A stretch of DNA of 12,061 bases from a virus. Its lineage: Duplodnaviria > Heunggongvirae > Uroviricota > Caudoviricetes. A model generated the notes under the pieces. That model saw only the letters and a program-made list of their open reading frames with translations. It did no database searches and was not told the DNA's origin. A program made the position numbers and the translations under genes. The stretch lies in the IMG/VR virus record IMGVR_UViG_2574180227_000017, one strand, 5' to 3'. Positions 1-12,061 of this stretch are shown one piece after another. Within the stretch, counting starts at the first letter, position 1. Every line of letters begins with the position of its first letter.

Positions 1-1242
1 ATGGCGAGAAAAACACACCCATTAACCACAGTGCAGATCAAAGCAGCCAGACCAGCGCAAAAGGAGTACACCCTGCAGGACGGCGGAGGGCTTTTTCTCC
101 TGGTCAAACCGTCTGGATCAAAACTCTGGAGATTTTCCTACTACCGACCATCGGACAAAAAAAGAATATTGCTGAGTTTTGGATCGCTTGAAGATGTTTC
201 CCTGGCTGATGCCAGAAAACGCCGTAGCGAGTACAGGACGTTAATCAGTGCCGGAACTGACCCGCAGGACCACGAGAGGCAAAAAAGAGAGACAGAGGCC
301 CGAAGACAAGGGAACACGTTCGAAAATGTGGCGGCGGCATGGTACCAGGTGAAAATCAGCCAGAATCTGGCCCCCAACACGATTAAAGACATCTGGCGTT
401 CGCTGGATAAATATGTATTCCCGTTCATCGGCAACACGCCAATAGATACCCTCACCGCCCGAAGGTTCGTTGAAGTGCTTACCCCCATCAAGGAGCGCGG
501 CAACCTGGAAACACTCAAGCGGGTTTTACAGCGCGTTAATGAGGTAATGGATTACGCCGCCAACAGTGGGCTGATTGATGCCAATCCGGCTATGAATGTG
601 CGTAAGGCGTTTCCCTCACCTGTAAAAAAACATATGCCAACAATCCGCCCCGAACAGCTGCCCGAGCTTATGCAGGCTTTATCAGTATCGGCAACAGAAC
701 GGCAGACCAGATTACTGATTGAATGGCAGTTACTGACCGTAACCCGTCCCGCCGAAGCGTCATCAACGCGGTGGGATGAAATCAACCTGGACGCGAAGCA
801 ATGGACGATACCTGCCGGACGCATGAAGATGCGCAGGGATCACGTTATCCCGCTTTCCGGTCAGGCTATGGCGGTGCTGGAGGCCATGAAACCAATCAGC
901 CACCACCGCAATTACGTTTTCCCAAGTCTGAAAGACCCACAGCAGCCGATGAACAGCCAGACAGCTAACGCAGCATTGCGGCGTATGGGATTCGCTGGCG
1001 TGCTGGTGTCTCATGGATTACGCGCCATATTCAGCACAGCAGCGAACGAGGAAGGATTCGAGCCGGACGTAATAGAGGCGGCACTTGCCCACGTCGACAC
1101 CAACGAAGTTAGACGGGCATACAACCGGAGCAACTACATAGAAAAACGCATCGTGCTGATGCGCTGGTGGGGCGAATTTGTCGAGGCTGCGGCGACGGGC
1201 GTAACCCTCGCCAGTGGTAAAAGGGGTATCCGAGCCGTGTAG
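1..1242 (+). CDS. int: tyrosine site-specific integrase, P4/CP4-57 type
   Basis: 413-aa ORF. C-terminal catalytic region carries HGLR and AHVDTNEVRRAY motifs (His/Arg/Tyr of tyrosine recombinases). Overall architecture matches P4-family integrases. Sits at the element edge, so attL and the target are expected just upstream of the window. Confidence 0.9.
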   Translation: MARKTHPLTTVQIKAARPAQKEYTLQDGGGLFLLVKPSGSKLWRFSYYRPSDKKRILLSFGSLEDVSLADARKRRSEYRTLISAGTDPQDHERQKRETEARRQGNTFENVAAAWYQVKISQNLAPNTIKDIWRSLDKYVFPFIGNTPIDTLTARRFVEVLTPIKERGNLETLKRVLQRVNEVMDYAANSGLIDANPAMNVRKAFPSPVKKHMPTIRPEQLPELMQALSVSATERQTRLLIEWQLLTVTRPAEASSTRWDEINLDAKQWTIPAGRMKMRRDHVIPLSGQAMAVLEAMKPISHHRNYVFPSLKDPQQPMNSQTANAALRRMGFAGVLVSHGLRAIFSTAANEEGFEPDVIEAALAHVDTNEVRRAYNRSNYIEKRIVLMRWWGEFVEAAATGVTLASGKRGIRAV

Positions 1243-1248
1243 CTGTAC

Positions 1249-1295
1249 AGAAAACCAGTAAAAACTACGAAAACCATGTAAAACCGTCGTATAAT
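1249..1295 (+). promoter_or_regulatory. candidate promoter: four AAAAC tracts phased at about 10 bp (1251, 1261, 1270, 1280) ending in a TATAAT -10 (1290-1295)
   Basis: Read directly from the sequence. Helically phased A-tracts resemble an UP-element or bent DNA. No clear -35. Confidence 0.3.
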
Positions 1296-1738: not shown

Positions 1739-1945
1739 ATGGAAGCAATCAGAAAAATTATCTTTCGCCAGGAAGTAAAAAAAATTATCCACATCAAGGC
1801 AGACAGCACGCTGCAAAGCATGATCAACGCCGGAGAATTTCCGCAGGGTTTTCGCGTTGGTTTACGCCGTCGCGGATGGTATGAGGATGATGTGTTGTCC
1901 TGGCAGAAAGAACGCGAAGAGGAAGCACGCGGAACGGCTGCTTAA
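1739..1945 (+). CDS. alpA: AlpA-family phage regulatory protein (excisionase-like HTH)
   Basis: 68-aa protein. The ...INAGEFPQGFRVGLRRRGWYEDDVLSWQ... region matches the AlpA/Vis-type pattern (FP ... GW.E.E...W). Position immediately downstream of int is typical for PICI and P4-like elements. Confidence 0.8.
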   Translation: MEAIRKIIFRQEVKKIIHIKADSTLQSMINAGEFPQGFRVGLRRRGWYEDDVLSWQKEREEEARGTAA

Positions 1946-4096: not shown

Positions 4097-4396
4097 ATGA
4101 AACTTAAATATTCTGGCTTAACTGCCAGTGGCAACACTCACCCTAAATTTACGCGCGGTGATATTTACCGCGACCAGTACGGCGGCACGGTAATGATTAA
4201 GGGCGTGGCGGGACGGTGCGTAACTTACCGCCGTGAAGGTTACGAATATGATTGCGTGATGCCTGTTTATCAGTTCCGGCGTGATTTTTCTCTGGTACAG
4301 ACCGCGCCGCATAACGTGCCCACCAGCAGGGAGAAAGCACGCGCCAATATTCAGGAAATAAAAAAGATGCTTAACGTATTCAGGGGTAAAAAATGA
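4097..4396 (+). CDS. hypothetical protein (99 aa), translationally coupled to the primase gene
   Basis: SD GGAGAA upstream. Stop overlaps the primase ATG (ATGA at 4393-4396). Confidence 0.55.
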   Translation: MKLKYSGLTASGNTHPKFTRGDIYRDQYGGTVMIKGVAGRCVTYRREGYEYDCVMPVYQFRRDFSLVQTAPHNVPTSREKARANIQEIKKMLNVFRGKK

Positions 4397-6141
4397 AACT
4401 GGCACCGAACGTAAAAAAACAGCCACGCGGAATAAAACACAAAGACACAGAGGTAATTATCTTTGCGGGTAGTGATGCCTGGTCACACGCGGAACAATGG
4501 CAGGAGCAGGATGGCCCCGCATCCGGCGATAATGTGCCGCCTGTGTGGCTTGGGCCAAATCAGCTTGCCGAACTTGATGCACTGAAAATTGTTCCGGATG
4601 GAAAAAAACGCGTAAGGCTGTACCAGGCCGGAGAACTGGATTTGGTGGAGACCAAAAAGATTGGTCAGAAGCTGGCGGCGGCAGATATTCAGGACGCAAA
4701 TTTTTACCCCGAAGGAATGCACGTCCAGAAGTGTGAAAACTGGCGGCGCTATCTGAATGCTGAGCGTGAAAATATTGCCGCAGGGCTTACCATGCCGGAG
4801 CAGAAAAATACGCAACTGGCACAAATGGCAGACAGTGAGCGCGCGCAGCTGCTTGCCGAGCGCTTTGATGGCGTTTGTGTGCATCCGGAAAGTGAAATCG
4901 TTCACGTATGGCGCGGCGGGGTATGGTGTCCGGTCAGCACAATGGAACTTAGCCGCGAAATGGTGGCGATCTATTCAGAGCACAGGGCCACTTTCAGCAA
5001 GCGCGTAATCAATAACGCCGTGGAAGCGTTAAAAGTTATTGCCGAACCAATGGGCGAGCCGTCCGGCGATTTGCTGCCGTTTGCCAATGGTGCGCTTGAC
5101 CTGAAAACGGGGGAATTTTCCCCGCACACGCCGGAGAACTGGATCACCACGCACAACGGCATTGAGTACACGCCACCAGCACCAGGGGAGAACATCCGCG
5201 ATAACGCGCCAAACTTTCATAAATGGCTTGAGCACGCAGCCGGAAAAGACCCGCGCAAGATGATGCGTATATGTGCCGCGCTGTACATGATTATGGCGAA
5301 CCGGTACGACTGGCAGATGTTTATTGAGGCCACCGGAGACGGCGGGAGCGGCAAAAGTACATTCACCCACATCGCCAGCCTTTTAGCGGGGAAACAAAAC
5401 ACGGTAAGCGCGGAAATGACATCGCTTGATGATGCTGGTGGGCGTGCGCAGGTTGTCGGGAGTCGTCTTATCGTCCTGGCAGACCAGCCGAAATATACAG
5501 GCGAAGGCACGGGCATCAAGAAAATCACGGGCGGCGACCCCGTGGAAATCAACCCGAAATATGAAAAGCGTTTCACTACGGTAATCAGGGCGGTGGTGCT
5601 GGCGACCAATAACAACCCGATGATATTCACCGAACGGGCCGGAGGCGTGTCACGTCGTCGGGTTATTTTCCGCTTCGACAATATCGTAAGCGAGGCAGAA
5701 AAAGACAGGGAGCTACCGGAAAAGATCGCGGCTGAAATCCCTGTCATTATCCGCCGCTTGCTGGCGAACTTTACCGACCCTGAGAAGGCACGGGCTTTAC
5801 TACTGGAACAGCGTGACGGTGATGAAGCTCTGGCAATAAAGCAACAGACGGATCCGGTTATTGAGTTTTGCCAGTTCCTGAATTTTCTGGAGGAAGCGCG
5901 CGGCCTGATGATGGGTGGCGGTGGCGATTCAGTGAAGTATACGACCAGGAACAGCCTTTACCGCGTCTATCTGGCGTTTATGGCGTACGCAGGCAGGAGC
6001 AAACCGCTAAACGTAAATGACTTTGGCAAGGCTATGAAGCCAGCCGCGAAAGTTTACGGACATGAATATATTACGCGGAAAGTTAAGGGAGTAACGCAGA
6101 CTAACGCAATAACAACAGACGATTGCGACGCGTTTTTATAA
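4393..6141 (+). CDS. replication primase/helicase, P4-alpha-like (D5_N-type domain plus SF3 P-loop NTPase)
   Basis: 582-aa ORF. Walker A GDGGSGKST, Walker B-like LIVLADQ, motif C VVLATNNNP. Followed immediately by an iteron array, as in P4 alpha/ori and PICI pri-rep/ori. Confidence 0.9.
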   Translation: MKLAPNVKKQPRGIKHKDTEVIIFAGSDAWSHAEQWQEQDGPASGDNVPPVWLGPNQLAELDALKIVPDGKKRVRLYQAGELDLVETKKIGQKLAAADIQDANFYPEGMHVQKCENWRRYLNAERENIAAGLTMPEQKNTQLAQMADSERAQLLAERFDGVCVHPESEIVHVWRGGVWCPVSTMELSREMVAIYSEHRATFSKRVINNAVEALKVIAEPMGEPSGDLLPFANGALDLKTGEFSPHTPENWITTHNGIEYTPPAPGENIRDNAPNFHKWLEHAAGKDPRKMMRICAALYMIMANRYDWQMFIEATGDGGSGKSTFTHIASLLAGKQNTVSAEMTSLDDAGGRAQVVGSRLIVLADQPKYTGEGTGIKKITGGDPVEINPKYEKRFTTVIRAVVLATNNNPMIFTERAGGVSRRRVIFRFDNIVSEAEKDRELPEKIAAEIPVIIRRLLANFTDPEKARALLLEQRDGDEALAIKQQTDPVIEFCQFLNFLEEARGLMMGGGGDSVKYTTRNSLYRVYLAFMAYAGRSKPLNVNDFGKAMKPAAKVYGHEYITRKVKGVTQTNAITTDDCDAFL

Positions 6142-6429: not shown

Positions 6430-6708
6430 ATGCACACTTCAGGGAAATTTAATAAATCACTCAAAAAACGCAGAGACAGAACAGAACCGAAATATCGCGC
6501 GTTAGACATGACAGAGCACGCTTTAAAGGTGGCAATCAGAACGATAGACCGCCACGCGGGGGAAGGATACGCGAAAGCACATCCCGAACTGATAAGCGCA
6601 TTCATGACCACGACGGCGGCAAATTTTGCCACGCTGACAGAGCGGGAGATTGCCGAAGCGGAACAGGTAACAACCATCAACGTTAAAACCGGAGAGGTGG
6701 AATCATGA
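6430..6708 (+). CDS. hypothetical protein (92 aa)
   Basis: SD GAGGGGG upstream of ATG 6430. Stop overlaps the ssb start (ATGA at 6705-6708). Confidence 0.5.
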   Translation: MHTSGKFNKSLKKRRDRTEPKYRALDMTEHALKVAIRTIDRHAGEGYAKAHPELISAFMTTTAANFATLTEREIAEAEQVTTINVKTGEVES

Positions 6709-7127
6709 CAGCACAGATAGCCGCTTACGGGCGGCTGGTGGACGACCCGCAGGTAAAACAGACCAGCAAGGGTACACCGATGACGCTGGCGCGTATGGCG
6801 GTATCTTTGCCATGCAGTCAGGCACAGGACGGACAGGCAGCGTTATGGCTATCAGTCCTGGCATTTGGTAAGCAGGCCGACGCGCTGGCGAGACATGAAA
6901 AAGGCGACCTTATCAGCGTGGCGGGTAACATGCAGATCAGCCAGTGGACCGGACAGAACGGAGAAACGCGGCAGGGCTGGCAGGTTATCGCAGACAGTGT
7001 AATCAGTGCGCGAACGGCGCGACTGGGCGGCAAAAAAGGTCAACAGGGCCAGGCTACTGACGCGCTGAACAGGGCAAAACAACAGGCGGGGAATGATGAT
7101 CCGTACGGGGATAACATACCGTTTTAA
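6705..7127 (+). CDS. ssb: single-stranded DNA-binding protein (SSB-like)
   Basis: 140 aa. OB-fold-like pattern alignable to E. coli SSB (G.L..DP ... FGK.A ... KGD..V.G ... W...NGE.R). Ends in the acidic tail DDPYGDNIPF, resembling the canonical SSB tail DDDIPF. Confidence 0.75.
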   Translation: MTAQIAAYGRLVDDPQVKQTSKGTPMTLARMAVSLPCSQAQDGQAALWLSVLAFGKQADALARHEKGDLISVAGNMQISQWTGQNGETRQGWQVIADSVISARTARLGGKKGQQGQATDALNRAKQQAGNDDPYGDNIPF

Positions 7128-7165: not shown

Positions 7166-7346
7166 ACGGGTCCTCCTGGCGGGGTGGGCCTGAACACGGG
7201 GCGGGAGGCGCGGAAAAAAGCGCATTTTTGTGATTTTATCGTCATCATCATCATGAGCGTAATTTATTGTTTTTAATTGTTTTGATGCAAAAAAGATGAT
7301 GGTTTTGGTTAATTTTCGTTCGACATCTTTGCAGGCAGATAAAAAA

Positions 7347-7377
7347 GCCCGATAAGGTCAGAGGTGGCTTATCGGGC
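7347..7377. terminator. hairpin with flanking A/T runs (terminator-like on both strands, stronger on minus)
   Basis: GCCCGATAAG-GTCAGAGGTGG-CTTATCGGGC, preceded by AAAAAA and followed by TTT. Confidence 0.45.
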
Positions 7378-7458
7378 TTTTGCATATGAGGCTTTTTGGT
7401 GCACTGACACACATGATCGGGATAATCATTTCATAATTTGCAACGCAATTCAATATCA

Positions 7459-7510
7459 TTGCACAAAATGCAATCATGATTATAATCATAACTGGATGAA
7501 CATCCAGTTA
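7459..7510 (+). promoter_or_regulatory. capsid-operon promoter (TTGCAC 7459-7464, 16-nt spacer, TATAAT 7481-7486) with palindromic operator ATAACTGGATG-AA-CATCCAGTTAT (7487-7510)
   Basis: Read from the sequence. The -10 lies inside the palindrome ATGATTATAATCAT. The operator overlapping the predicted start has the form CTG-N10-CAG. Confidence 0.45.
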
Positions 7511-7542
7511 TGATTTTTTAAGTCAAAGAGGAATTTCTTACT

Positions 7543-7749
7543 ATGGCTGAAGAGAAAAAAGGCGGTGTTTCGGTGTACATAAGCCCCGACATCGTGAAGG
7601 CGCTCAAGGAACGCCACCAGCAGAACGTAAAAGCAGGCATTGCGGCAGGACTTGATCCGCTGGCGATGGTTGAGCCGTCAACAGGCTGGCAGGTACGCGC
7701 CTATTTACGCGCGGCGCTGGGTATGAATCAGGTTCACGGGGGTGAATAA
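7543..7749 (+). CDS. hypothetical protein (68 aa), first gene of the capsid operon
   Basis: SD AGAGG upstream. Stop overlaps the capsid gene start (TAATG at 7747-7751). Confidence 0.5.
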   Translation: MAEEKKGGVSVYISPDIVKALKERHQQNVKAGIAAGLDPLAMVEPSTGWQVRAYLRAALGMNQVHGGE

Positions 7750-8804
7750 TGACAGTAAAAGCAATAGCACTTAACACTAACCAGCTTTTTGCGTACCTGA
7801 ATCGCGAGGATATTGCGGAATTTAAATTCAGTCCGCTGTTTACCGCGCTGTTTTTCCCGAACGTGGCGACATTCAACACACAGGACATCATGTTAGATAA
7901 CCTGGATATTGAAGAAGTCACTATGTCGGCGTTTTGTTCGCCTATGGTTGGTAGCCAGGTTCAGCGCGATAAAGGGTACGAAACAAGCATTATTCGCCCT
8001 GGCTACATGAAGCCAAAACACGAAATCGATCCATTAAAAACAATAATGCGCATGGCTGGAGAAGATCCGGCACAGCTTAACGACCCTACCTACCGCCGTA
8101 TGCGCCTGATTACTGGCAACATGCGCCGCCAGATAAACGCCATTAAAGCGCGCGTGGAATGGCTGGCGGTGAATGCGATAACGACCGGAAAAAACATCAT
8201 TGAGGGCGAAGGCATAGAACGCTATGAAATCGACTGGAAAATACCGGAAAACTGCATCATAGAGCAGGCCAAGGGTAAAAAATGGTCTGAGCAGGATAAA
8301 GACATACACGACCCAATATATGACATTGAACTATACGCAGATCAGGCAGGTTGCCCCGCCAACGTCATGATTATGGGCGTTGATGTATGGCGCATGTTAC
8401 GCAGCTTTAAAAAATTCCGTGAACTGTACGATCTCTCCCGTGGTTCAGAATCCGCCGCAGAGCTGGCATGTAAAAACCTGGGAGAAGTGGTGAGCTTTAA
8501 AGGCTATCTTGGTGATCTGGCCCTTATCGTCTATTCCGGCAAATACACTGACAGCGACGGCACAGAAAAATATTTCCTTGAGCCTGATTTGCTGGTCCTG
8601 GGCAACACCAACAATAAAGGGCTGGTGGCCTATGGTGCGATTATGGAACAGGAAGCGGTAAGAACGGGCGCAACGCAAAACATGTTTTACCCGAAAAACT
8701 GGATTGAAGACGGCGATCCGGCGATTGAGTACGTGCAGACACACAGCGCACCGCAGCCTGTTCCGGCAGATATTCGCAAATTTGTTACCGTCAAAATTGG
8801 TTAA
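7749..8804 (+). CDS. major capsid protein, lambda gpE family
   Basis: 351 aa. Multiple blocks align with lambda gpE as recalled: FKFSPLFTALFF vs FKFDPLFLRLFF, PGYMKPKHEIDP vs PGYVKPKHEVNP, EDPAQLNDPTYRRMRLI vs EDPQNLADPAYRRRRII, LGDLALIVYSGKY vs YGDVAIVVYSGQY, YPKNWIEDGDPA vs YPKNWVTTGDPA. Confidence 0.92.
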   Translation: MTVKAIALNTNQLFAYLNREDIAEFKFSPLFTALFFPNVATFNTQDIMLDNLDIEEVTMSAFCSPMVGSQVQRDKGYETSIIRPGYMKPKHEIDPLKTIMRMAGEDPAQLNDPTYRRMRLITGNMRRQINAIKARVEWLAVNAITTGKNIIEGEGIERYEIDWKIPENCIIEQAKGKKWSEQDKDIHDPIYDIELYADQAGCPANVMIMGVDVWRMLRSFKKFRELYDLSRGSESAAELACKNLGEVVSFKGYLGDLALIVYSGKYTDSDGTEKYFLEPDLLVLGNTNNKGLVAYGAIMEQEAVRTGATQNMFYPKNWIEDGDPAIEYVQTHSAPQPVPADIRKFVTVKIG

Positions 8805-8815
8805 CGGTGGATTCT

Positions 8816-9151
8816 ATGAACACTCCATACATTGAGTTATTTGCAGGCAGTCAGCAGGTATCAACGACGCTGGTACATTTTGCCGCTGATGCTGGCGTTA
8901 TTCAGGAATTTACCCCGCTGATGCTGGCGGACAATGGCGAGTTTAAGCCGTGGGATGGTCAGGAATCTGGCAAGGCTGTTTATCTGACCTCGTACCCCGT
9001 TGACACGTCGACGCAGAAATCAGCACAGTGCTATAAGACGGGGATATTCAATATCGCCGCCGTTAACTGGCCTGAGAGCGTCGACACCGATGCGAAAAAA
9101 TGCGCCGCCTTTGCGGGTTCTGGCGTATCCGTTCAGCCGCTGGCCCGATAA
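8816..9151 (+). CDS. head decoration protein, lambda gpD family (alternative GTG start at 8807)
   Basis: About 111 aa. Conserved gpD blocks TPLML, WDG, YKTGIF (lambda YKSGTF), WPE, KK.AAFAG. SD GGTGGA before ATG 8816. Confidence 0.85.
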   Translation: MNTPYIELFAGSQQVSTTLVHFAADAGVIQEFTPLMLADNGEFKPWDGQESGKAVYLTSYPVDTSTQKSAQCYKTGIFNIAAVNWPESVDTDAKKCAAFAGSGVSVQPLAR

Positions 9152-9163
9152 GCAGGGGGAACG

Positions 9164-9577
9164 ATGGCAACGAATGAAAGCATCATGGCGCTACCGCTGG
9201 CGAGTAAATTTAAAGCCGAAGCGCGGGCAATGGCTGACAGAGGGTTATCAACCTACGAGGCCGTATATCAACTCAACAAACTGGAAGAACAGGACAAGCC
9301 GCGCGCTGATGCGATTATGGCGCTTCATGAACATAACGACTATCAGCCGCTGTTACGTGCAATGGCAAACGTGCCATGTATTAGCGTCGATAATGCTCGT
9401 GAAATCCTGAACATGACCATAGAGCAGGAGCGCCCAAAGGTTGCACCAGAGCTTACCGCAGCCTTTGAAAACTTTATGGACATGCACAGCCCGCAAGCCG
9501 TATCAGCTGGCATGGCGTACGATGGCAGAAACCAGGGCGATGACGGCGACATCGATCGCATACTGAAAACCATCTGA
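9164..9577 (+). CDS. hypothetical protein (137 aa), last gene before cos
   Basis: ORF with SD GGGGGAA upstream, followed by a terminator. Similar in size and position to a head-completion or packaging accessory protein, but no motif recognised. Confidence 0.5.
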   Translation: MATNESIMALPLASKFKAEARAMADRGLSTYEAVYQLNKLEEQDKPRADAIMALHEHNDYQPLLRAMANVPCISVDNAREILNMTIEQERPKVAPELTAAFENFMDMHSPQAVSAGMAYDGRNQGDDGDIDRILKTI

Positions 9578-11575: not shown

Positions 11576-12061
11576 TCAGAACGTCCAGACCACACCCGCC
11601 TGAGTTGTGCTGCTTTCTTCACGGGAGAAACGGCTGTCGATACCGAGCGTCAGGCCCGTCAATGTTTGCTCAAAGCCAGCTCCCGCATCAGTGTTCACGT
11701 TGTTGCGGCTGTTAATTACCGAACTCCACATCGCCGTATCGTAATTAACGCCTTTTACGCTACCAAGACGCCCACGCACGGTGTCCAGTTCTGCATCAAA
11801 TACCAGCGGTTGTGCTGCCGCCATATTCAGCACATCCGTGGTTGAAGGGGGCATTTGTACGCGATTCTCTGCGAGACTCCAGCTATGGTTGCCATTATCC
11901 AGCAAGGTATATTCATACGTACTGATATCAACAACGCTTCCGGCATTGCCCAACGTAAATGCCGCATCACCGCGCCCTCCTTTAATCGTGGGATCAGTCG
12001 CCGCGCCATAAACCTGTAGCACTCCATTATTGATCGTAGTCTGGTTTACCGCGCCACCCAT
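11576..12061 (-). CDS. 3' portion of an autotransporter-like (type V secretion, Ag43/AIDA-like) gene; ORF runs off the window at its 5' side
   Basis: Passenger-like repeats (GGAVNQTTINNGVLQVYGAATDPTIKGG). YTLLDNGNHSWSLAEN resembles the Ag43 junction motif YSLNRDSDESWYLRSE as recalled. Ends in the aromatic terminus VWTF typical of outer-membrane beta-barrels, but only about 95 aa follow the junction motif, so the beta-domain looks too short. Confidence 0.45.
   Translation of the reverse strand: MGGAVNQTTINNGVLQVYGAATDPTIKGGRGDAAFTLGNAGSVVDISTYEYTLLDNGNHSWSLAENRVQMPPSTTDVLNMAAAQPLVFDAELDTVRGRLGSVKGVNYDTAMWSSVINSRNNVNTDAGAGFEQTLTGLTLGIDSRFSREESSTTQAGVVWTF

Follow-up and report, generated by a model that had tools for sequence, protein, structure and literature searches.

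A predicted LexA operator at the capsid operon promoter of an Escherichia coli phage-inducible chromosomal island

Introduction

In the pathogenicity islands found in Staphylococcus aureus (SaPIs), operon I, which covers packaging and capsid remodelling, is reportedly under LexA control, a finding attributed to Ubeda et al. in 2007. A host LexA box that overlaps the -10 element or lies just past it is also found in colicin operons, and at antirepressor genes that LexA represses in coliphage 186, N15 and the Salmonella Gifsy prophages. Among Gram-negative phage-inducible chromosomal islands (PICIs), the experimental prototype is EcCICFT073, for which induction and transfer by a helper phage have been shown (PMC6092414). 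Published work on this island describes a helper-dependent activation by AlpA and a global repressor that is unclear, and deletion of c1499 or c1500 had no transfer or interference phenotype, a point that counts against a ready benefit from regulating these genes. For both EcCICFT073 and EcCIMP1, induction of alpA is reported to depend on the helper phage rather than on SOS (PMC6092414, PMC11773190), and the island's master switch is therefore something other than SOS. The E. coli island papers mention the work on SaPI operon I solely as a reference (PMC6092414, PMC6739421). In the searchable literature, we found no report of LexA control for E. coli or other Gram-negative islands, with LexA occurring in reference lists only, and the main texts yielded no transcriptome or ChIP data showing that SOS induces c1498-c1503.

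Here we describe a stretch of viral DNA of 12,061 nucleotides (IMG/VR record IMGVR_UViG_2574180227_000017, referred to as the window, and the source of all coordinates given without a locus name), in which the capsid operon of a satellite has a predicted LexA (SOS) box at its promoter. This extends to E. coli islands, as a prediction, the control of satellite packaging genes by host LexA that is known in the staphylococcal islands.

The predicted arrangement resembles SaPI operon I in two respects: a satellite packaging and capsid operon would be under the host SOS repressor, apart from the excision and replication switch, and this operon would lie downstream of the replication module with a promoter of its own. 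The two differ in the LexA consensus (CGAAC-N4-GTTCG type in Gram-positives, CTG-N10-CAG in enterobacteria), in their proteins, which are unrelated (TerS, CpmA/B and Ppi versus homologues of lambda gpE, gpD and Nu1, and Rpp), and in the master switch (the repressor Stl in SaPIs, the activator AlpA in the window island). With the colicin operons, 186, N15 and Gifsy, the window would share the coupling of a mobile element's expression to DNA damage via host LexA. However, the sites in those elements control lysis, toxin and antirepressor genes, whereas the target in the window is the structural and packaging operon of a satellite that is unable to form particles alone.

The island and its capsid operon

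Judging by its genes, the window is an E. coli PICI, a phage satellite, of the EcCICFT073 type. Pfam matches give the PICI layout of an integrase, an AlpA-type regulator, primase and replication genes, and then a packaging module, in one orientation and over about 10-12 kb (Table 1); all satellite genes of the 12-kb window are on the + strand. The gene order matches the annotation in Nissle 1917 and CFT073. The island family, to which EcCICFT073 belongs, is common in E. coli: of 5426 complete genomes of this species, 601 contain the region 7250-7760, and these include Nissle 1917, O157:H7 strains and CFT073. The Nissle 1917 copy of the island adjoins a tRNA-Pro gene.

Table 1. Coordinates of genes and predicted regulatory features in the window
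Feature	Position	Strand	Basis or remark
Tyrosine integrase	1-1242	+	Pfam
Second LexA-like box, AGCTGTACAGAAAACCAGTA	1241-1260		Index 7.66, second best in window
AlpA-type match, weak	1739-1945	+	Below Pfam cut-off
Ash-family protein and DUF4222 protein		+	Pfam; listed between AlpA-type match and primase
D5-type primase	4393-6141	+	Pfam
SSB	6705-7127	+	Pfam
Intrinsic terminator, strong	7336-7388	+	Inverted repeat then T-run; closes replication/SSB unit
TTGCA-N5-TGCAA palindrome, including predicted -35	7459-7473	+	Sole exact match to pattern in window
Predicted -35, TTGCAC	7459-7464	+	3/6 match to consensus
Palindrome ATGATTATAATCAT, perfect, 14 bp, contains TATAAT	7476-7489		Sequence reading
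Predicted -10, TATAAT	7481-7486	+	16 bp 3' of TTGCAC; predicted start near 7492-7494
Predicted LexA (SOS) box, AACTGGATGAACATCCAGTT	7490-7509		Covers predicted transcription start
68-aa protein, first operon gene, c1498 homologue	7543-7749	+	phrog_3255, 8.4e-37
Major capsid protein, lambda gpE family, c1499 homologue	7749-8804	+	Phage_cap_E PF03864, 7.7e-48
Head decoration protein, lambda gpD family, c1500 homologue	8807-9151	+	HDPD PF02924, 3.7e-18
137-aa protein, c1501 homologue	9164-9577	+	phrog_1999, 4.3e-64
Nu1-like small terminase, 180 aa	9785-10327	+	Phage_Nu1 PF07471, 9e-23; phrog_57, 1.9e-52

EcCICFT073 itself (PMC6092414, PMC6739421) has the same order of genes from integrase to packaging, an identical 32-bp palindrome upstream of c1498-c1503, and a nearly identical promoter region and leader. 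The window differs from it in the integrase and attachment site, in having no PerC-family gene, and in the fifth gene of the shared gene order, which in the CFT073 annotation encodes the 144-aa RppA where the window has the 180-aa Nu1-like protein. This Nu1-like terminase is probably in the same operon as the capsid genes, and the window island may carry a true small terminase rather than an Rpp protein.

Of the remaining operon products, the 68-aa protein is a hypothetical protein in RefSeq relatives. The 137-aa protein resembles the C-terminal part of a head-maturation-protease family (phrog_53 positions 494-567 of 583, 7.3e-10), and we infer that it is scaffold-like. A sequence search with the 180-aa and 137-aa proteins found no matching chain among solved structures, crystallised RppC included.

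Predicted promoter and palindromes

The terminator upstream of the capsid operon folds well as RNA (region 7330-7400, -25.6 kcal/mol, z -3.25), and its stem and T-run are invariant in eight aligned E. coli sequences. By eye, Salmonella and more distant relatives also have GC-rich hairpins with T-runs upstream of this promoter. Termination at this site would make the capsid operon a separate transcription unit. In CFT073, the expression of c1498-c1501 changes together, going up after a shift to 37 °C (PMC12890032), which fits a single transcription unit beginning at the capsid promoter, and also indicates further inputs.

We predict the promoter of this unit, and its transcription start, from the hexamers TTGCAC-16-TATAAT (Table 1). 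A simple promoter scan did not call this pair because the -35 matches the consensus at only three positions of six. The pair proposed by the scan instead, TTCATA-18-TATCAT at 7430-7459, was rejected, as its -10 varies among close relatives. The TATAAT is kept in 26 of the 27 distinct variants of the promoter region.

The predicted start and the -10 element lie in two palindromes, for which the preliminary description proved accurate, and in one respect conservative. It had claimed a 24-bp perfect inverted repeat and a -10 within a second palindrome, and both can be read, the former as ATAACTGGATG-AA-CATCCAGTTAT at 7488-7511 and the latter as ATGATTATAATCAT. The 24-bp repeat is nested in a longer one, AATCATAACTGGATG-AA-CATCCAGTTATGATT, which spans 32 bp at 7484-7515 (15+2+15 bp, with 100% complementary arms), begins within the TATAAT, and has a T-run after it (7514-7519). 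The CTG-N10-CAG palindrome that it had placed at the promoter of a satellite capsid operon is likewise present at 7492-7507 (CTG at 7492-7494, CAG at 7505-7507), with the downstream genes being capsid genes by Pfam and the promoter being predicted.

In the -10 palindrome, the core TGATTATAATCA is nearly invariant among relatives, and the outer pair of ATGATTATAATCAT shows weak covariation only (CG in 11, AU in 7, unpaired in 9). We did not accept this covariation as a pairing signal, as it is weak and could be haplotype linkage. The best match to the Fur consensus in the window (14 of 19) overlaps the same palindrome, at 7472-7490, with another in the 7415-7433 region. Four of the seven Fur matches of 13 or more fall in the capsid promoter; the AT-rich promoter sequence may explain this, and a Fur site here is a weak lead only.

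Match to the LexA consensus

For scoring, a LexA matrix was built in this analysis from 18 E. coli SOS boxes (PMC3009722), and sites were compared by the Berg-von Hippel heterology index; the indices given here derive from this matrix, and so are not comparable with published index values. The 20-mer at 7490-7509 has an index of 6.98, and the 18 published boxes have leave-one-out indices from 0.6 to 12.8 (for example, recA 7.44, cho 7.93, ruvA 8.52, uvrB 9.11, polB 12.6 and dinG 12.8). It is the top match to the LexA matrix in the window, and in 300 Markov-randomised 12-kb windows no site scored as well. At any one position, the probability of such a score is approximately 2.5e-7 to 6.5e-7.

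The half-sites, CTGGAT/ATCCAG, are the same as those of the ruvA (ruvAB) SOS box, and the centre, TGAACA, is one base off the TGAGCA of recA, such that the site looks close to a hybrid of ruvA half-sites and a recA centre. Its score falls in the range of the chromosomal ruvAB, cho and recA boxes, from which it differs in being on a mobile element, upstream of virion genes and within a 32-bp perfect palindrome, and in being a predicted site. The preliminary description had called a LexA assignment weak on account of CTGG and CCAG. The published boxes do not bear this out: CTGG...CCAG is found in ruvA (CGCTGGATATCTATCCAGCA) and cho (CACTGGATAGATAACCAGCA), and a right-hand CCAG in 7 of the 18. 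Scoring with a LexA matrix, which had been proposed there as a check, puts the site in the middle of the range of known boxes, and the accompanying suggestion of SOS control with a SaPI precedent is likewise supported at the level of sequence. The LexA reading thus appears to be better supported than was originally proposed.

The predicted box begins 3 bp after the -10 TATAAT of what is a predicted promoter with a partial -35 match. Such a placement is typical of repression. We consider it likely that the core at 7490-7509 is an operator of host LexA, through which the capsid and packaging operon would be repressed, with the repression relieved by SOS.

Conservation among relatives

The box is present in all 80 close IMG/VR relatives, in nine variants, and in eight E. 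coli genomes. Its CTG and CAG are invariant in the 80 close relatives and present in all four of the more distant boxes, and the changes in close relatives are confined to box positions 1, 2, 9, 10-11, 15 and 20. The conserved part is only the core, CTGGAT-N4-AT(C/A)CAG; over half of the close relatives have changes in the outer left arm. At four loci, a C-to-A variant (ATACAG) breaks the palindrome and improves the LexA index to 5.95.

More distant satellites have the promoter, TTGCA-N5-TGCAAT(C/G)ATGATTATAAT, in common with the window, as well as the ribosome-binding region; the intermediate lineages were obtained by exact-protein look-ups. The box occupies the same place as in the window in Salmonella (L015 and L021; GACTGGATGAAAATCCAGTA, index 6.69), in locus L020 (CACTGTATATAAATTCAGTT, index 5.52) and in Lelliottia (L024; CACTGTTTTTTCATACAGTT, index 5.80), and lies 14 bp further downstream in L022 (TGCTGGATGTTTATCCAGTT, index 4.79). 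Over five satellite lineages there are thus five distinct box sequences between the promoter and the ribosome-binding site, two of them with a canonical CTGT and all agreeing with the LexA consensus, and in three lineages the box starts 3 bp past the -10. When the window box was randomly substituted at the observed number of positions, its score was kept in only 0.03-5% of trials.

These sequences bear on an alternative raised in the preliminary description, an operator for an element- or helper-encoded regulator. A dimeric protein of this kind would recognize CTGGAT/ATCCAG or a longer AATCA...TGATT dyad, and the likeness to a LexA site would be incidental. The perfect symmetry does extend to 32 bp, past the 20-bp LexA box, and there are a few compensatory changes in the outer arms. 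The window, Salmonella and L020 all have the AATCA...TGATT flanks, L024 has a degenerate form of them, and with TTGCA-N5-TGCAA adjacent, at least one other factor probably acts at the promoter. However, CTGGAT/ATCCAG is replaced by CTGTAT/TTCAG in L020 and by CTGTTT/ATACAG in L024, and the displaced L022 box has lost the AATCA/TGATT flanks, so that the host LexA consensus alone is common to all of the relatives. Position 7489, just outside the box, is paired (with 7510) in only 13 of 27 variants and broken in the other 14. In an unsystematic comparison, no candidate regulator gene tracked the presence of the box. We therefore disfavour such a regulator, and regard it as very improbable that the palindrome is its operator. 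The conserved unit appears to be the LexA consensus, neither one particular palindrome nor a hairpin, and the perfect 32-bp form in the window would be a lineage-specific extension of the box and not a conserved functional unit.

Three other capsid-protein groups (160 loci), which also served as a negative control for the matrix, have no box with an index of 9 or below within 700 bp upstream, and 117 kb of related loci contain no other site with an index of 9 or below. Type-2 E. coli, Edwardsiella, L023, L025 and clades near 54% capsid identity lack the box and keep the same promoter, and no box was found in Kluyvera, Cedecea, Superficieibacter or Kosakonia. Since sister lineages are without it, LexA control would be dispensable for such operons. 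A scan of the genome collection with a single capsid protein gave no matches, a profile scan of the same collection gave only seven distant loci, none with a box, and a scan of viral contigs with the Salmonella capsid protein returned only the E. coli clade again.

Possible roles of the inverted repeat in RNA

The inverted repeat might also work at the level of RNA, either as a terminator or attenuator (for insulation or helper antitermination) or as an mRNA-stabilising 5' stem-loop. A terminator scan flags 7484-7515 with its T-run as a 15-bp hairpin followed by UUUUUU, and this hairpin, if fully transcribed, has a folding energy of -17.3 kcal/mol (z -5.7). The predicted start is inside the left arm, however, so the full hairpin would be missing from the transcript of this promoter, and the fold from 7493 onward is no better than shuffled sequence (z 0.04). 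In addition, only 4 of the 15 stem pairs are G-C, a strong terminator is already present 100 bp upstream, and no Rfam family reaches threshold.

The pattern of substitutions is mixed in this regard. Outside of the 20-mer, there are a few compensatory changes in the outer arms (T-A to C-G; G/A to G-C). A-to-G changes are restricted to the left arm, where they fit G-U pairs in + strand RNA. Over the 27 variants there are four double-change cells versus 1.6 expected, and four was reached in 9 of 500 shuffles. LexA alone does not explain these outer-arm changes, but the signal is modest. It is also the case that the helpers of this island family are lambdoid phages, which use antitermination (PMC6092414). 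Against this, the ATACAG variant disrupts a central stem pair, and in L020 and L024 the hairpins are weak (-7.7 and -5.7 kcal/mol, respectively) and have no T-run, although the LexA consensus is kept. Because the long hairpin and T-run are not conserved, a terminator is unlikely, as is an operator for a regulator other than LexA; we judge a function of the repeat in RNA to be quite improbable as the main explanation, and an added role for RNA or for the extended dyad to be a minor possibility.

Helper Q-type antitermination, with a promoter followed by a hairpin terminator, was considered separately and rejected: the predicted start is within the hairpin, the hairpin is not conserved, and the -10-like hexamers upstream are either not conserved or without a -35.

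Proposed regulation by LexA

If host LexA is the repressor, as we favour, then in an undamaged cell a LexA dimer would occupy the box, at about -4 to +16, and occlude RNA polymerase, such that a near-consensus promoter with a perfect -10 would be silent. Upon DNA damage, RecA would be activated, LexA would cleave itself and the promoter would be freed, and the operon would be derepressed when SOS-inducible lambdoid helper prophages are induced. LexA would accordingly govern the late module, not the master switch. In this scheme, promoter activity, start site, LexA occupancy and SOS inducibility are all things that we infer.

It might be that LexA binds here with little regulatory effect, and that the real control is by the TTGCA elements, by AlpA or helper factors, or by temperature. 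Several observations point in this direction: sister lineages manage without the box, the TTGCA motifs are conserved more widely than the box, c1498-c1501 respond to a temperature upshift, and the published control of the island is by the helper via AlpA, not by SOS. On the other hand, the box has been kept in 80 of 80 close relatives and, under sequence constraint, in four distant lineages, which is hard to explain without a fitness effect, and it is in the classic occluding position beside a consensus -10. We consider binding without much effect to be unlikely.

Were LexA to control the operon, antibiotics that trigger SOS would directly switch on a module with phage-interference and packaging-redirection genes, which in EcCICFT073 would include rppA, if it is co-transcribed with c1498-c1501. 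The Gram-negative and staphylococcal islands would have converged on one regulatory design, and engineered islands used as delivery vehicles would gain a simple control point supplied by the host.

TTGCA motifs and a second LexA-like box

The TTGCA-N5-TGCAA palindrome is conserved in the Salmonella, Edwardsiella and type-2 E. coli relatives, and in the window group there is a further TTGCA 20 bp upstream of it (7438-7473 in all). In distant clades the motif takes the form of three TTGCAY direct repeats at 10-bp intervals, TTGC-N6-TTGC-N6-TTGC (L008 2368-2400, L010 2379-2410, L014 2369-2400, and L334 about 620-655). TTGCA motifs are thus found upstream of the capsid genes in all lineages, with or without a LexA box, and are probably the site of a second regulator. 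Activation of the lambda CII type, via TTGC-N6-TTGC, was considered and appears doubtful: by eye, the distance from the repeats to any -10 in the distant clades misfits the geometry of CII-dependent promoters, and the window has an inverted, not a direct, arrangement of TTGC.

The second LexA-like box in the window takes in the final base of the integrase stop codon and is followed, 30 bp downstream, by a conserved TATAAT (1291-1296), with variable small genes beyond. Of 56 relatives of this integrase, 54 have a box at that offset, in most cases AACTGTACAAAAAACCAGTA (index 4.68). The integrase of EcCICFT073 is a different one; this island has exactly two LexA-like sites in 18 kb, and between int and alpA it carries TACTGTTTTTTTATACACTG (L163, 7289-7308; index 5.66), with CAC instead of CAG. 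This second site adds to the case for LexA at the capsid promoter.

A broader proposal, which we offer as possible but doubtful, is that host LexA is the missing resident repressor of the Gram-negative island family. The two conserved SOS boxes, one after the integrase and one at the capsid promoter, would let the island sense DNA damage directly and ready its late genes ahead of the helper-triggered AlpA switch, or without it. Activity of the capsid promoter would require both the loss of LexA and a factor at the TTGCA repeats, and in the CTGGAT lineages the hairpin may have a function in RNA.

Other features of the island

A gene for a PerC-family regulator is located upstream of the capsid promoter in many relatives (L005-L007 and L162; O157:H7 and CFT073). 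It directly adjoins the promoter in CFT073 and L004, small ORFs intervene in O157-type loci, and the window and Nissle 1917 are without it. In some relatives (L016, L017, L023 and L024), the capsid operon comes with an S49 protease gene, to which Edwardsiella adds a portal protein, and the capsid-operon family thus grades from islands with capsid, decoration and scaffold only towards capsid-forming ones. At the right edge of the window (11576-12061, - strand) there is an autotransporter fragment (Pertactin and beta-domain), a pseudogene in the Nissle 1917 annotation, which represents cargo or else flanking DNA.

Approximately 106 bp at 7225-7330 are roughly 88% identical to an unannotated stretch just upstream of the small terminase gene in Stx2-converting phages. 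This segment is likely the cos site of the island, copied from or shared with a type of helper. Finally, two direct repeats of AAAACGGTG, 20 bp apart (1634-1662), lie upstream of the AlpA-like gene, the first of them inside the palindrome AACGGTGTATACCGTT, and are candidate sites for AlpA autoregulation.
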